A DNA stretch of 63,070 bases, counting the filler, from Collodictyon triciliatum (lineage: Eukaryota), in assembly GCA_043381765.1 (NCBI GenBank). It is 33 parts of 33 records of this genome, joined end to end, with 100 filler letters (N's around TTAATTAATTAA, not from the genome) between each part and the next. Parts side by side here need not be neighbours in the genome. Positions count along the whole stretch, not along the records: positions 9,608 to 11,429 come from JBHJMP010010144.1; 32 more parts are not named here. One strand, given 5' to 3'. The notes beneath the pieces were generated by a model that had not been told where the DNA came from, did no database searches, and saw only the letters and a list, made by a program, of their open reading frames with translations. This document shows, piece after piece, positions 9,281-15,360 of the stretch; position 1 is the first letter of the stretch; the number at the start of each line of letters is the position of its first letter. The translations under genes were made by a program, and so were the position numbers.

Positions 9281-9607
9281 ATTAGAATCATTATACATTT
9301 GAATGCGACTTGGGGTTTTGTTTTCATAGCGGTTTTTTCGTCGCTGGTTTTTTTCTTTTTTCTTTTTTCTTTTTTCTTTTTTCTTTTTTCTTTTTTCTTT
9401 TTTCTTTTTTCTTTTTTCTTTTTCTTTTTTCTTTTTTCTTTTTTGCTTTTTGTTTTTTGTTTTTTGTTTTTTGTTTTTTGTTTTTTGTTTTTTGTTTTTT
9501 GTTTTTTNNNNNNNNNNNNNNNNNNNNNNNNNNNNNNNNNNNNNNNNNNNNTTAATTAATTAANNNNNNNNNNNNNNNNNNNNNNNNNNNNNNNNNNNNN
9601 NNNNNNN

Positions 9608-11125
9608 AAGAAGAACGCTTTCTGTTCGTCGGACTGTCTCATGTATTACCATACTTGGCGAGCCAAATGTTAGCAGCTTATCGTAATAACATCACGGAAC
9701 ATTTTGTATAGAGGTTACTGCGCTTTAAAAATCAAACAGTTCCTAAACATGAGAATATTACGGAAGCTATTAAAAAGGCAGAGCTACGATAGTTTTAAAA
9801 AAAAAAGCCGTCTTCATGAATCTCGACATACTGGAACAATAAATGATGAGCTAAAACGCATTTGCATCATATCATCCCAGCGATATTGTAAATGGTATCG
9901 AATATGACGCCAAAGTCAATCCAAATAAGTACATTCCATGTCCGATTCACATGAATCGCATTTTTTAGGACATTTGAACCAAACAGTTTCAACCAATCCC
10001 TATAAGAACTACCAATATACCATGTCATATTACTCTAGATATTGCATGTTTGATAGGTATTAGTATCAAGTGGAAAAACATTATTACTGAAGAATATATC
10101 AGGATGCAAAGAGACCCTATGGGATAAGTTCTTTGAAATGAAGAAGAGGGTCTTTCATCAAAGAGACTACAATTTCAAATACATGATACAAACAGACGGC
10201 TTGGCGGTGTCATTATTGTTTGAAAAGAAAGGTTTTTCAAAACTCAAAATTAAATCGAACCCCCCAAAAATATGTTTATATAGATGAACTTTCCGAAGAG
10301 CAGGTATCTTTCTTAGCCAAAAAAAAAATGGTTGGAGTGGACACAGGCAAGTTTAATTTTGTTTACATGGTGGATGAGACAGGCAAGAAATTACGTTACA
10401 CAGCACACCAAACAAGACATGATAGCAAATCTCTTAATCACAAAATACTCTTGCGCGAGAAAGAAAAGAATATTGTTTCAGGGATATAGATGGCAGAAGA
10501 TTTACAAAGTGCTGTTTCTTTTGGTCTCATGACTTTTGAAGAGAATCGGTAGTTTGAGACATCAAGAGTATCTTTAATTGATTTAGAGACAGAGCTGAGT
10601 AAACATAATTCACGCACGGTCGATTGTGAAAATTTCGAAAATATGTATCTATGAAATCAAGATGCCAGATAAAATTTTCTAGATTTTATGAACAAGTAAC
10701 TTTTCGAAAGATGATATGGAGACAGTATGTTGATACAAAAAGTAAACAGTTGCTTATGGACGGAATCGAAAGGACATTTGGCAAGGATGTTGTACTGGCG
10801 TATGGAGACTGGAGCAGAAAATATCCGATGAAACATTTTATGCTAACAATCGGAAGAGGATTACGGAAAATACTATCCAAATGTTTTGAAACGGTTATTG
10901 TAGATGAATTTAGAACCTCCAAAATGTGCTGTAACTGCGAAAAGGAACTGGAATGTATGAAGCCGAAAGGAAATACAAAAAAATGTGTATAGATGTCTCA
11001 CATGTAAAGAATGCAATCGTTCAGAAAGCAAAAAAGTGTATTCTTGACAAGGGACTTCAACAGCCCTAATAATATACTCATGAAAGTTCTTTTAATCCTT
11101 CAAAAAAAAATGCATACACCTTTTA
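9608..11125 (+). pseudogene. Fanzor1 (TnpB-like RuvC nuclease), copy 1; frameshifts and stops; 5' end cut by contig edge
   Basis: IQTDGLAVSLLF; YIDEL; RuvC-I VGVDTGK; LRYTAHQ; YGDWS; VDEFRTSKMCCNC; CKEC; RuvC-III RDFNS. Confidence 0.88.
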
Positions 11126-11131
11126 AAAAAC

Positions 11132-11248
11132 AGACTGTTGGGTCTTTCCATGCAACCTTCACCACTGTATTATCTTTGTGAAAAAAGTGGTGAGACCTTG
11201 GATACTAGCGCACCAGGTTTACCATTCGAAAGATTCGTATACTCCTAG
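11132..11248 (+). ncRNA. Candidate Fanzor omegaRNA scaffold / element right end, copy 1
   Basis: Noncoding block conserved in all three copies, with four adjacent hairpins. Ends in CTAG at 11245-11248. Confidence 0.6.
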
Positions 11249-11562
11249 TATATTAAAAAAAAGTAGAAAAAGCAGGAAAAAGCAGGATAAAGCAAAAAAA
11301 AAAAAAAGATTTTGTAGCGGGATGTAGGCAAATAAACCGAATATATACATATCTGGAAAATAAGAAATCCGATCAAAACATGCAGAAAAAGAAAAGTAGC
11401 AAGACATTCGCACCGTAGAATCAAGGCTGNNNNNNNNNNNNNNNNNNNNNNNNNNNNNNNNNNNNNNNNNNNNTTAATTAATTAANNNNNNNNNNNNNNN
11501 NNNNNNNNNNNNNNNNNNNNNNNNNNNNNGAACAAATTATCTGATGTAAATTTCATCAACAC

Positions 11563-13017: not shown

Positions 13018-15360
13018 AAGTCAGTTGGGTCGTTCTTAGTTTCTCATTTGTTTCCCGACAAAGTTTACATGAATAAGCTTACTTCTTATGTTTCCTTTTT
13101 TCCTTTTTTTTCCTTTTTTTCTTCATCCCATTCATGTTTTCTTTCATCTGCTATGTTTTCGACTAGTACATTCGAGAATAGAGAAAAGCAACAAAGACAA
13201 AAAAAAGTCTCAAGTTTGTGCACCTTTGTTTGACGTGTTGGTCGTTAGTTTTCTTTTGTTTTTTGTTTTTTGTTTTTTGTTTTTTGTTTTTTGTTTTTTG
13301 TTTTTTGTTTTTTGTTTTTTGTTTTTTGTTTTTTGTTTTTTGTTTTTNNNNNNNNNNNNNNNNNNNNNNNNNNNNNNNNNNNNNNNNNNNNTTAATTAAT
13401 TAANNNNNNNNNNNNNNNNNNNNNNNNNNNNNNNNNNNNNNNNNNNNACTGTCAAAGTTTAGATGTTGGTATATGAAAAAATTTCAAAGACAACACTGTT
13501 TTCAGATATGTCGAATGACTTTAACGCACCATGTTTACAGCCGCAGAAGATCAGTTCCGTAAGCTAGGGTGGTTTTTTACATCAATTTATCACATTGTTC
13601 ACGGGATGAAGTACGGCTTGTTTGACATGCGTTAATTTTCCATATATTTATGAAAATACGCACATTATTTCGGGGAGACAAAGTATCTTTCAAAAAGACC
13701 ATGGATGAGAGGGACTTTGGCAAGGACGAAACCTACCGGACGTTCAGTCAGCGAAATATTGTATTCACAACTACTGAGTTTGTATAAATTCCATCACTTT
13801 CAGGAAGTGCGAAGCTGATGTTTTATGTGGACGAAAGCCCATGTTGTTGTTGCTCAGCCAGAGAGCCTCTAACATTGAAAGAGCTGACATTTTTTTGTAT
13901 GAGGAATGGAAGCCTATTACTGGAAAAGTCTAGGGGAACAAGTAATAAAAGGAAGGGTATATCTGAATTCGATCCCTCGGAGTAAGTTGTTCGAGATGTT
14001 TAGAACCTCTAAGGAAGATTATGAGTATGTGCGCCGCATCATGTTTTGTAGACCGTTCCAGACAGCATGATATGTTGCAGCGCCGCACAGTTTCATATTT
14101 AAATCGTTTGCCTTTTGGGTCTGTTCTCTGCAGCCTAGAGGTTCTTGATGCTTCGAAGCCCTGAAATCTCTGGAGGAAGACTCGATATGCGATTTTTGGA
14201 CAAATACAGACGGGATAGGTTGACCGAATAATCAACATGGATTGATTCAGCCAAAATTGAAACTTACAAGGACAATACGGAAAGCCTATTTTTCGAGACA
14301 AACAGTGTTGTAGTAGGCGCAACGATATCACTCTGGCAAATCAGTAATTCTGTTTTCATGCAACGAGAGAAACTCGAGATTTTTGAGGTTGGATATATCC
14401 TTCTGTATGCTTCCGAGCTGTTTCTTGAAATGTTGATGGGACATGAATTGTTTATCTGTAATAAAAAAAATCGTATGAAGATGGTATTTGATTGTTATTG
14501 ACGTGAAACAAGGTCAGATCTTCAAGAGAGGTGGATGGTACTGGGAGAAAAAATCAGCATGTTCTTGTCCACTCGATCTGTTTTGAACCTCTTTAGCATC
14601 ATCATTTTTGAGGAAGAAAATGAGGTCTCTTTGCAGGCATGTCTAGTAATTCGAGATTGGTGGGTAATATTAATTAGAACGAGAAGTCGTAATATAATCA
14701 TCGTGTGCATCAAAGAATGGCAGGCTCATCAGATTGTACATCACTGATCGGATGTTGTACTCATGTTTCTTCGAGAGGCTGAGTCACTTAAACAAACGAA
14801 ACTGCAAGATGGCTCCGCGAAGAGAAGAAATCTACCTATGAGCCAGGTAAAAAAAAAGTACATTCGCTTTTCAACTTGCTTTCTGGAGAATCCCAGAGAC
14901 TCACAGAAAATTAGTCGTCCGGGGCATTGCCTTCATGCTCCATTGCCAGAGCGTGCCTTTTGGTGCGCTCTCTACTATAATCAACGGGCTTTCCGTTTCA
15001 AGCCCTTTGCGATGCATAGTTCTTTTAAATCGGACTGTTAATAACCTCTCTCTCCATCTAAAACTATGCTTTTTCTTTGCTTTTCATTTTTCATTTTTCA
15101 TTTTTCATTTTTCATTTTCCATTTTCCAATTTTCATTTTTCATTTTCCATTTTCCAATTTTCATTTTACATTTTACATTTTACATTTTACATTTTACATT
15201 TTACATTTTACATTTTACATTTTACATTTTACATTTTACATTTTACATTTTACATTTTACNNNNNNNNNNNNNNNNNNNNNNNNNNNNNNNNNNNNNNNN
15301 NNNNTTAATTAATTAANNNNNNNNNNNNNNNNNNNNNNNNNNNNNNNNNNNNNNNNNNNN

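Follow-up and report, generated by a model that had tools for sequence, protein, structure and literature searches.

The stretch of DNA analyzed here very probably contains three inactivated copies of a single eukaryotic mobile element that carried a Fanzor1 gene, each copy decaying on its own. This stretch, the window, comprises 63,070 nucleotides from Collodictyon triciliatum and consists of 33 contigs of about 1.8 kb with N spacers between them. Matches to a profile of the family are confined to three of the 33: c6 (9608-11429), c16 (28777-30591) and c27 (49818-51627), whose copies we call copies 1, 2 and 3. Our reading rests on Fanzor1 homology, a conserved residue pattern, the decay of the copies, their neutral divergence and a sharp right boundary beyond which the flanks differ.

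Three decayed copies of one repeat

The earlier note had described the three contigs as alignable at the nucleotide level, and all-against-all blastn confirmed this with identities of 84-88%. Contigs c6 and c16 are 85.2% identical over 1670 columns, c6 and c27 85.3% over 686 columns plus 86.8% over 468, and c16 and c27 84.3% over 683 columns plus 88.1% over 469. E-values for the pairs run from 0 to 1e-158, and the similarity is therefore far beyond chance. The copies share a right end, GTATACTCCT, past which their flanks differ, the boundary of the repeat being sharp at 11246; the ends proposed earlier (11248, 30573 and 51203) fall within 2 nt of it.

9608-11246, plus strand: copy 1 on c6, Fanzor1 pseudogene (blastn, alignment, profile mapping, lesion calls)
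28887-30571, plus strand: copy 2 on c16 (alignment, profile mapping, lesion calls)
49818-51203, plus strand: copy 3 on c27 (blastn, alignment, profile mapping, lesion calls)
11237-11246, plus strand: shared right end GTATACTCCT (alignment); counterparts at 30562-30571 and 51194-51203
50271-50522, plus strand: 252-nt insertion in copy 3, a SINE-like retroposon that ends in AATAAAGGAAAAAAA, with a repeated ATCTTTCATCGATTT target on its flanks

Copy 1 is cut on its left side by the start of its contig and maps to positions 117-595 of the 612-position profile, and copy 3 begins within the gene, also at a contig start. The most complete of the three is copy 2, which matches residues 94-581 of an intact relative, P0001. 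The 110 nt upstream of it (28777-28886), covered by copy 2 alone with no second copy, contain an ATG at 28869 preceded by a TATAAAA-like stretch. The repeat unit is short, 1.7 kb, and is found with several distinct flanks. On the 1.8-kb contigs we found no left end, TSD, TAM or partner transposase. The inverted repeats in c16 are low-complexity or internal pairs only, with no terminal inverted repeat among them, and across the whole window Rfam gave 0 matches at gathering score and the tRNA scan 0 genes.

Many diverged pieces of the family occur in four metagenome runs, with 12, 129, 4 and 25 matching records. The depth of metagenome contigs is 0 after about 11255, and loose ends there reveal two further flanks. 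A scan of metagenome contigs returned 12 loci, all at 45% identity or less, and thus no same-family copy with its context. No RNA run was among the listed sequencing runs with matches, in which the shares were small (0.05-0.12). Two metagenome contigs of run X2 contain a joint that skips 11106-11176, with sides of 30-34 nt, and one metagenome contig matches the flank from 11247 on only. Metagenomes from freshwater and groundwater also contain DNA of the source eukaryote. Atlas look-alikes of a kinase ORF came from mixed taxa.

All three copies are dead. Copy 1 carries 18 lesions (10 frameshifts and 8 in-frame stops), copy 2 carries 22 (14 frameshifts and 8 stops) and copy 3 carries 8 (4 frameshifts and 4 stops) in addition to the 252-nt insertion; the same retroposon is found in reverse orientation in c24 and as a 5'-truncated tail in c26. 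These counts, which agree with the earlier description of the copies as decayed, derive from one MAFFT alignment and a phase-anchored, lesion-minimizing mosaic, and the 5' 40% of the gene is covered by two copies only. Among about 45 distinct disabling events, 4 are common to two copies and 0 to all three, and 18 of the 19 sites with a stop are hit in a single copy; that the lesions largely differ between copies, as had been proposed, is therefore correct. At the stops and frameshifts of copy 1, the unbroken letter is seen in independent metagenome contigs. Divergence between the copies is neutral: the differences fall on the three codon positions as 66/66/67, 37/37/47 and 47/39/42 in the three pairs, and 24%, 25% and 20% of codons with a single difference are synonymous, against 23% expected at random.

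Fanzor1 homology and conserved residues

An unaltered 120-aa piece of copy 1 (10630-10989) matches three Fanzor1 proteins in the PDB, PpFz1 (9cf0, E 9.6e-11), SpuFz1 (8gkh, 2.6e-4) and GtFz1 (9cer, 0.036), the sole remaining row standing at E 0.13. The same piece also identified the intact relative P0001 (596 aa, E 5e-15), which itself matches PpFz1 (2.1e-22), SpuFz1 (4.4e-17, over nearly its whole length) and GtFz1 (3.5e-12). For the window piece, P0001 and a second relative, P0002, these three are the only significant PDB sequence matches. In tblastn, P0001 is collinear with c16 across residues 94-581, with frame switches. Exhaustive phmmer searches found 1244 relatives at E<=1e-3 and 213 at E<=1e-10, and pieces of every copy map in order, from position 117 to 595 of 612, onto a profile built from 56 full-length relatives.

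The nearest intact relative found, P0005 (634 aa, from public assemblies), is 41% identical to a mosaic of the three copies over 527 columns (E 3e-136) and 50% identical to the 120-aa piece. For the fold comparison, P0005 stood in for the broken copies of the window. The Fanzor1 fold differs from the compact fold of TnpB or Fanzor2 in its enlarged REC and RuvC regions, which form a channel. The top 7 PDB structure matches of the P0005 AlphaFold model (pLDDT 88.6) are all Fanzor1 chains, with TM 0.66-0.84 (SpuFz1 0.78-0.84, PpFz1 0.71-0.73, GtFz1 0.66), and the model gives TM 0.21 to both ApmFz2 (9b0l) and ISDra2 TnpB (8h1j). The PDB matches, the collinear profile mapping and the fold of P0005 together bear out the Fanzor1 reading of the earlier note, and the structure prediction, run on this relative, supports it in placing Fanzor1 chains best. 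Pfam matches of 8 window pieces all lie below gathering score, the best being PF07282 at 17.5 vs 26.3 bits and PF01385 at 15.9 vs 30.5. P0001 and P0002, although intact, also fall under the PF07282 cut-off. Because the pieces and both intact relatives tested are below the Pfam threshold, gene and domain tracks miss the family. A 97-aa piece of copy 3 matched no Fanzor in the PDB, its best match being an epimerase (E 0.18).

The motifs quoted in the earlier note are all present, spread over different frames in each copy.

10189-10221: QTDGLAVSLLF in copy 1
10331-10351, plus strand: RuvC-I motif VGVDTGK in copy 1, Asp codon at 10340-10342; counterparts at 29654-29674 and 50027-50047
10801-10815: YGDWS in copy 1
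10846-10869: TIGRGLRK in copy 1
10900-10938: VDEFRTSKMCCNC in copy 1, with the relocated Glu (10906-10908) and the first CxxC
10801-10938, plus strand: YGDWS through VDEFRTSKMCCNC, open in copy 1 only
10994-11064, plus strand: second CxxC (CLTCKEC, 10994-11014) and RuvC-III RDFNS (11050-11064), Asp at 11053-11055

The RuvC-I column holds Asp in 39 of 39 family proteins and aligns with D383 of SpuFz1. The canonical RuvC-II Glu site is occupied by the Gly of YGDWS, again Gly in 39 of 39, and the Glu of DEFRTSK, conserved in all 39 as well, lies 34 residues downstream of that site in c6; in examples given in PMC10530073 the alternative Glu lies about 45 residues downstream. In Fanzors and TnpB2-type proteins an inert residue, Pro or Gly, takes the place of the canonical RuvC-II Glu. 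Counted along the alignments, D383, E541 and D606, the catalytic residues reported for SpuFz1 (PMC10432273), coincide with the three motifs of the window. At 12 of 12 near-invariant columns the residue of the family is found in window pieces, save for one column where c16 has Y in place of N. Copies 1 and 3 retain the relocated Glu, which copy 2 has lost (VNGF, Gly); the first CxxC is broken in copy 2 (CCNR) and copy 3 (CCNY), CLTCKEC and RDFNS sit in different frames in copy 1, and copy 3 retains D, E and D.

A signature described for the C-terminal half of Fanzor and TnpB proteins, D-X(125,275)-[TS][TS]-X-X-C4-X(5,50)-RD (PMC3627910), is complete in copy 1 only. There it comprises the D at 10340-10342, the TS of EFRTSK (10915-10920), KM, CCNC...CLTC and RD, with about 190-200 codons from D to TS and 12 residues from the last Cys to RD. 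The relocated RuvC-II Glu had been regarded as characteristic of Fanzor1; this does not hold, since Jiang et al. 2023 (PMC10530073) ascribe it to all Fanzors and some TnpB clades. Probable membership in Fanzor1 is based on the best hits and the modeled fold and not on this motif. The conserved C-terminal motif of the family has its counterpart in HTPF(K/S)KK, with HTPF at 11113-11124 in copy 1. A downstream 'APGLPFER', considered as the family's RPxxFxR motif, was rejected: it has no profile match, and HTPF(K/S)KK is found in another frame instead.

Alternative explanations, reconstruction and the right end

The copies could instead belong to a living gene, with introns, programmed frameshifts, a variant genetic code or homopolymer errors of sequencing or assembly passing for lesions. 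In its favor, several frameshifts lie within A-runs, and a GT..AG interval from LLFEKK to DELSEEQ, noted by eye, would restore the frame in all three copies, with differing lengths. We consider this explanation highly improbable. The candidate intron is itself unlikely: it would remove Y[IV]xxL, a segment alignable with P0001 and PpFz1, and a DP in which introns were permitted chose none. At the private stop sites a range of sense codons (K, G, W, Y, Q, E and others) is present in the other copies, and a variant code was rejected because no stop is consistently recoded. The even spread over codon positions, a synonymous share at random expectation, frameshift places that differ from copy to copy and the retroposon that interrupts copy 3 also argue against a gene under use. 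One metagenome contig is identical to c6 over 10410-10560, both c6 stops there included, although the run that contains it may be the sample behind the window assembly.

Two other origins can be weighed against a cellular Fanzor1 element. Prokaryotic TnpB, an IS607-type Fanzor2 or bacterial contamination is hardly credible as the source. Accounts in PMC3627910 and PMC10530073 do place the D...TS-xx-C4...RD signature and the relocated Glu in Fanzor2 and some TnpB clades as well, and the weak Pfam matches are to TnpB-type models; however, both the significant PDB sequence matches and the high TM scores of the P0005 model single out Fanzor1, a protein body of at least ~530 residues with a large REC region fits Fanzor1, and other window contigs encode eukaryote-type domains (a WD40 array, WW, NHL and protein kinase). 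Descent from integrated giant-virus (Nucleocytoviricota) DNA is very unlikely. Fanzor1 is known in large dsDNA viruses, as PMC3627910 records, and viral members make up 82% of one look-alike Atlas cluster (score 0.94), but a scan of viral contigs confirmed no relative, with 0 of 12 pattern matches passing, and the top Atlas clusters are eukaryotic, most commonly Mucoromycota, Zoopagomycota and Oomycota, which serves as a lead only. A 1.7-kb unit repeated with several different flanks likewise speaks against a viral origin.

We favor decayed copies of a cellular Fanzor1-bearing element. When intact, this element would have coded for a Fanzor1 protein about 560-630 aa long, containing REC/WED, a split RuvC and a zinc-ribbon TNB domain. 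Two Asp residues, from GVDxGK and RDFNS, and the relocated Glu of DEFRTSK would make up the predicted catalytic triad of this protein. Judging from characterized Fanzor1 systems, it would bind an omega-RNA transcribed from the 3' end of the element, and would cut at DNA matching a guide read from the flank past the right end, beside a short TAM. We infer that the element transposed, that its protein was formerly an active nuclease and that hairpins near the right end (11132-11193 and counterparts) formed the omega-RNA scaffold.

The earlier note anticipated that a consensus would restore an open frame and that the family could be reconstructed from the three copies; neither expectation held as stated. 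The plain majority consensus has 10 stops in its best frame and a longest open run of 212 codons, partly because two frameshifts near the relocated Glu and Zn finger each occur in two copies. A best-of mosaic reaches 527 codons with one stop remaining at codon 132, a site intact in neither of the two copies that span it, and in the mosaic's linker all three copies are out of frame. About 100 N-terminal positions of the 612-position profile are absent from all three contigs, placing the full-length protein beyond rebuilding from the window. The intron-allowing DP went astray at RuvC-II and the Zn region, where it followed an open frame that was wrong. A naive consensus ends up in a wrong but open frame exactly over the catalytic Glu and Zn finger. 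Since some lesions are shared and the naive consensus takes the wrong frame, three copies are too few for a safe reconstruction.

It is unlikely that an intact, active master copy persists in the host. Such a copy would encode a compact Fanzor1 of ~560-630 aa with only about 41% identity to the nearest protein found. A ~115-nt module of two or three hairpins, running from just past the conserved C-terminal motif to GTATACTCCT, would serve as its omega-RNA scaffold. If this were true, more copies could yield a rebuilt protein that works as a new small eukaryotic RNA-guided nuclease.

11132-11193, plus strand: two adjacent hairpins downstream of HTPF; counterparts at 30459-30520 and 51089-51150

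Only copies 2 and 3 preserve these hairpins well, those of copy 1 having decayed; fold z-scores against shuffles are -0.56, -5.0 and -4.05 for copies 1, 2 and 3. Lying before the right end, the hairpins are a plausible candidate for an omega-RNA scaffold or a transposon-end structure. Compensatory change was found at 0 of 26 pairs in the consensus hairpin fold, and at E<=1 the 3' region had in Rfam two opposite-strand snoRNA rows only (E 0.14 and 0.3), which we took as chance. A reading of real but lesser weight is that they are a transposon-end structure, for example of Helitron type, a decayed C-terminal coding tail, or both, and not an omega-RNA scaffold. With indels taken into account, two reading frames run open through the region in every copy, and family members carry variable tails of 0-60 aa after RPxxFxR. 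PMC3627910 presents Fanzor1 families that are carried by Helitron2 elements, which have hairpins at their termini; in these families 5' truncation is frequent and the 3' end is left intact. The lack of covariation fits here too. However, the strong folds of copies 2 and 3 begin just past the conserved C-terminal motif, and omega-RNAs of characterized Fanzor1 and TnpB systems covered by PMC10432273 are transcribed from exactly such a position and may overlap the end of the ORF, so that the end-structure and omega-RNA roles are compatible.

Comparison with known systems

Among eukaryotes, Fanzor1 nucleases correspond to TnpB and Cas12; they are in development as compact genome editors, so that each new lineage adds a little to the catalogue. 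Their carriers are large DNA viruses or eukaryotic transposons (Mariner, Sola, IS4-like, Helitron, MuDR, hAT and others). The window itself holds three neutral relics, and its practical lesson is one of caution over consensus rebuilding.

PpFz1 of Parasitella parasitica (PDB 9cf0-9cf3; Xu et al. 2024, PMC11423790) is the best solved-structure match of both the 120-aa piece and P0001, and its motifs correspond to those of the window (GNWS/GDWS, GLRRML/GLRKIL and IDEFRTSSFC/VDEFRTSKMC, PpFz1 first). It has about 108 extra residues (chain 987-1096) between aligned blocks that P0001 and the window family do not have; at this stretch PMC11423790 describes a RuvC insertion (FRI) domain that only Parasitella and Rhizopus have. 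The TAM of PpFz1 is 5'-ATN. Unlike PpFz1, the window copies are pseudogenes.

SpuFz1 of Spizellomyces punctatus (PDB 8gkh; Saito et al. 2023, PMC10432273) aligns with P0001 over the whole length of the latter, and in structural alignment its sequence identity to the P0005 model is about 22%. For the Spu-1 family the same paper gives 42 loci, 19 of them full-length, plus 134 'ghost' loci. Like Spu-1, the window family is multi-copy, has partial copies and carries a candidate omega-RNA region at its 3' end. Spu-1 has 30-nt inverted repeats, whereas none was found for the window family, whose left end is absent from the contigs, and the copies of Spu-1, at about 82% identity to one another, have their catalytic sites intact, whereas the three copies here are dead. 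P0005 has all motifs in common with the window family, including KK(V/L)FRCL(V/I)C...SESKQ.VF..RD(L/F)NSA.N, but belongs to a different lineage, at less than 50% identity, with an intact ORF and about 130 more N-terminal residues.

TnpB (ISDra2), Cas12f and Fanzor2 (ApmFz2) would have in common with the window family, by analogy, a RuvC and zinc-ribbon (TNB) core and an RNA-guided mechanism, and the family has weak Pfam matches to OrfB_IS605 and Cas12f1-like_TNB. However, these proteins reach TM of only about 0.2-0.3 to the P0005 model and give no significant sequence matches, and at their canonical RuvC-II Glu site the window family has Gly.

Old decayed Fanzor1 families have been described as well, among them CMe-1A (Bao & Jurka 2013, PMC3627910), which the entries for such families portray with copies about 80-85% alike, no TIRs, frequent 5' truncation or 3' over-representation and the D...C4...RD signature, as here. 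Some CMe-1A copies listed there encode intact proteins, whereas none of the window's three does. Fanzor families already described number in the thousands, and multi-copy families that include partial copies are on record too (PMC10530073, PMC10432273 and PMC3627910). Judged by its sequence, the Fanzor1-bearing element of the window is of a known kind, and its lineage is a diverged one, at 41% identity to the nearest protein found.

A Fanzor1 family on three contigs

The 63,070 bases comprise 33 separate contigs of 1806-1829 nt each, ordered by length and divided by spacers of the form N44-TTAATTAATTAA-N44, and contigs outside the family described here encode eukaryote-type domains (a WD40 array of 604 codons, WW, NHL and protein kinase); the material is therefore a fragmented eukaryotic assembly. 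An all-against-all blastn comparison of the 33 contigs, numbered in order, identified one repeat common to three of them:

9608-11429, contig c6: copy 1
28777-30591, contig c16: copy 2
49818-51627, contig c27: copy 3

By blastn c6 and c16 are 85.2% identical over 1670 columns, c6 and c27 85.3% over 686 columns and 86.8% over 468, and c16 and c27 84.3% over 683 columns and 88.1% over 469. The motifs listed in the earlier note are all present, spread over different frames in each copy, and the three-contig family that it had aligned is thus borne out, with end coordinates that fall within 2 nt of the right boundary common to the copies.

Eight unaltered in-frame pieces of the window gave only sub-threshold Pfam matches, yet in the correct order (OrfB_IS605, E 0.015, then Cas12f1-like TNB, E 0.0048 and 0.045), and a 97-aa piece returned no Fanzor match from the PDB. 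A 120-aa piece at 10630-10989, the longest open one, directly matched Fanzor1 proteins of solved structure: PpFz1 of Parasitella parasitica (9.6e-11), SpuFz1 of Spizellomyces punctatus (2.6e-4) and GtFz1 (0.036). It led to two intact public proteins among 14 candidates, P0001 (596 aa, matched at E 5e-15) and P0002 (760 aa). P0001 matched PpFz1 (2.1e-22), SpuFz1 (4.4e-17, over almost the whole length) and GtFz1 (3.5e-12) and nothing else of note in the PDB, and P0002 behaved in the same way. Both stay below the Pfam cut-off, which is why domain tracks miss the family. Their precomputed Pfam label is PF26935.1, absent from the results of the local Pfam-A scan; this could be a more recent family specific to Fanzor that would catch this lineage.

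An exhaustive phmmer search with the window piece yielded 1244 relatives at E<=1e-3, of which 213 also passed E<=1e-10. Closest among the full-length ones is P0005 (634 aa), 50% identical across the 120 residues. On a 612-position family profile built from those 56 of 152 retained proteins that are 560-720 aa long, the pieces of each copy map in strict order to positions 117-595. When 39 family proteins were aligned with five window pieces, the latter kept the family residue at near-invariant columns, among them the Asp of RuvC-I, the Gly that occupies the canonical RuvC-II position, the relocated RuvC-II Glu, TS and RD.N; c16 alone departs from this, with a single Asn-to-Tyr change. Counted along the P0001 and window-piece alignments, GVDxGK, DEFRTSK and RDFNS correspond to the metal-binding residues D383, E541 and D606 reported for SpuFz1 (Saito et al. 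2023, PMC10432273). For the P0005 structure predicted by AlphaFold (pLDDT 88.6, pTM 0.86), all seven best PDB matches are Fanzor1 chains, with TM-scores of 0.78-0.84 to SpuFz1, 0.71-0.73 to PpFz1 and 0.66 to GtFz1 versus 0.21 to both Fanzor2 (9b0l) and TnpB (8h1j).

Because PDB matches, profile order, conserved residues and the predicted fold of P0005 agree, the assignment of the family to Fanzor1, already proposed in the earlier note, is well supported. The relocated Glu, part of the motif order offered there as characteristic of Fanzor1, is by itself not specific to Fanzor1, since Jiang et al. 2023 (PMC10530073) describe the residue in every Fanzor and in certain TnpB clades.

Decay and partial reconstruction

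Lesions were scored against a lesion-minimising mosaic of the three aligned contigs, with codon phase anchored on significant profile matches.

Lesions per copy against the anchored mosaic
c6: 10 frameshifting indels, 8 in-frame stops
c16: 14 frameshifts, 8 stops
c27: 4 frameshifts, 4 stops (shorter span), 252-nt insertion at 50271-50522

Frameshifts common to two copies (three)
c16 and c27: 2-nt deletion between ILSK and ETV; c6 intact
c6 and c16: 1-nt insertion before FRCLxC; c27 intact
c16 and c27: 2 extra nt in the linker that follows LLFEKK; c6 out of frame differently

An eleventh frameshift call in c6, at the contig start, proved an artefact. The lesions mostly differ between copies, as had been claimed: 18 of 19 stop sites are private to one copy, and the other copies carry varied sense codons there, which excludes a variant genetic code. 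Both catalytic Asp residues are present in all three copies; c16 has lost the relocated Glu (VNGF), which c6 and c27 retain, and the first CxxC is intact in c6 only. Differences between copies fall evenly over codon positions (66/66/67, 37/37/47 and 47/39/42), and the synonymous share of single-difference codons (24%, 25% and 20%) lies near the random expectation of 23%; essentially the whole of the copies' ~15% pairwise divergence has thus built up by drift, free of selection.

The three copies allow no more than a partial rebuilding of the gene. A simple majority consensus of the three-copy region is not open (10 stops in the best frame, longest run 212 codons), and an unanchored parsimony mosaic, rejected here, gave an "open" path that ran in the wrong frame right across the Glu and Zn-finger region. 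The anchored mosaic spans 527 codons, with an uncertain linker, intact in none of the copies, and one unavoidable stop at codon 132, a site where both covering copies are broken. As a single domain the mosaic aligns to positions 100-592 of the 612 in the family profile (E 2.9e-161), and its identity to P0005 is 41%. Roughly the first 100 positions of the profile lie on none of the three contigs; the upstream 110 nt of c16, with an ATG at 28869, are covered by no second copy. Identity and decay as read in the earlier note therefore stand, and its restored open frame was overstated.

The right end and its hairpins

Similarity among the copies ceases at ...GTATACTCCT (11246, 30571, 51203), beyond which the flanks differ. 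Contigs from four freshwater and groundwater metagenome runs aligned to c6 (12, 129, 4 and 25 records, most of them 90-95% alike) at a depth that gives no copy number. They cover the element to about 11254, where coverage falls to zero, and display two further, different flanks beyond the same right end. They carry the unbroken letter at the c6 stops 9709, 9790, 9975 and 10550 and at the frameshifts 10056, 10628 and 11032, independent support for private c6 lesions and a family of many diverged copies, though one run may itself be the window's source.

Directly 3' of the conserved C-terminal motif HTPF (11113-11124 in c6) lie adjacent hairpins. In c16 (z -5.0) and c27 (z -4.05) these fold much better than shuffled sequences; in c6 they do not (z -0.56). 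In Fanzor and TnpB systems the right end is transcribed into the omega-RNA, which can extend back over the end of the ORF (PMC10432273), and in position and shape the hairpins fit such a scaffold, as a candidate. They may equally well form a structure of the transposon end or be the decayed tail of the coding sequence. The consensus fold has compensatory changes at 0 of 26 pairs, Rfam gave no match for the region, and a search of c16 found no inverted terminal repeats.

One metagenome run, X2, holds odd contigs. In two of them c6 11105 is joined to 11177, so that hairpin 1 and half of hairpin 2 are missing; in another the match begins at 11177 after unrelated sequence, and one matches the flank alone, starting at 11247. 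Deletion variants, copies of the 3' end only ("ghost"-like) or an empty site may explain them, though the matching sides are short and the flank has low complexity.

Surrounding repeats and known Fanzors

The insertion in copy 3 belongs to a SINE-like retroposon family of ~205 nt that starts CCAACCCCTGCTACCCACGC and ends ...CTTTGAATC(G/T)AATAAAGGAAAAAAA, with no tRNA or Rfam match. Heptamer arrays, (TTTTTTG)n / (CAAAAAA)n, number 22 matches versus 0 expected, several at contig ends.

Repeats in the window
50271-50522, c27: retroposon, 252-nt insertion in Fanzor1 copy 3
45512-45715, minus, c24: retroposon
about 49227-49270, minus, c26: retroposon, 5'-truncated, only the 3' ~35 nt
9439-9507 (end of c5), 13252-13342 (end of c7), 47338-47365 (c25), 41127-41147: heptamer arrays
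51570-51627, end of c27: related octamer

The c27 retroposon has a repeated ATCTTTCATCGATTT target on both sides and is preceded by an extra 20-nt tail-only unit. A microsatellite at which the assembly breaks may account for the arrays; a repeat of chromosome ends is another possibility. By blastn c24 (44087-45897) is a patchwork of repeats common to c11, c28, c27, c26 and c9 (c28 96% over 167 nt, c11 89% over 158 nt, the c27 insertion 91%); repeats abound in this assembly's small contigs. Contig c17 (30694-32505) is filled from end to end by an unbroken 604-codon WD40-repeat ORF (E 1.5e-80, 9 stretches); neither end is closed, so the gene extends past the contig.

No intact copy of the same family was found by a word search of 5.8 billion proteins (longer lengths), where two of 14 candidates were intact relatives, both <=52% identical, or in JGI metagenome contigs (12 loci, all <=45%), and viral contigs held no relative. 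By the collections searched, sequence comparison places the family as a diverged new Fanzor1 lineage, here as relics only, alongside the 3655 unique Fanzor nucleases reported by Jiang 2023 (PMC10530073). It differs from PpFz1, whose structure was solved by Xu 2024 (PMC11423790), in that the RuvC insertion domain described there is absent and appears as a gap in the P0001 alignment. Saito 2023 (PMC10432273) counted 42 Fz loci in S. punctatus, 19 of them full-length, and 134 ghost loci. Bao & Jurka 2013 (PMC3627910), who defined Fanzor1, described old multi-copy families, some ~80% identical to their own consensus.
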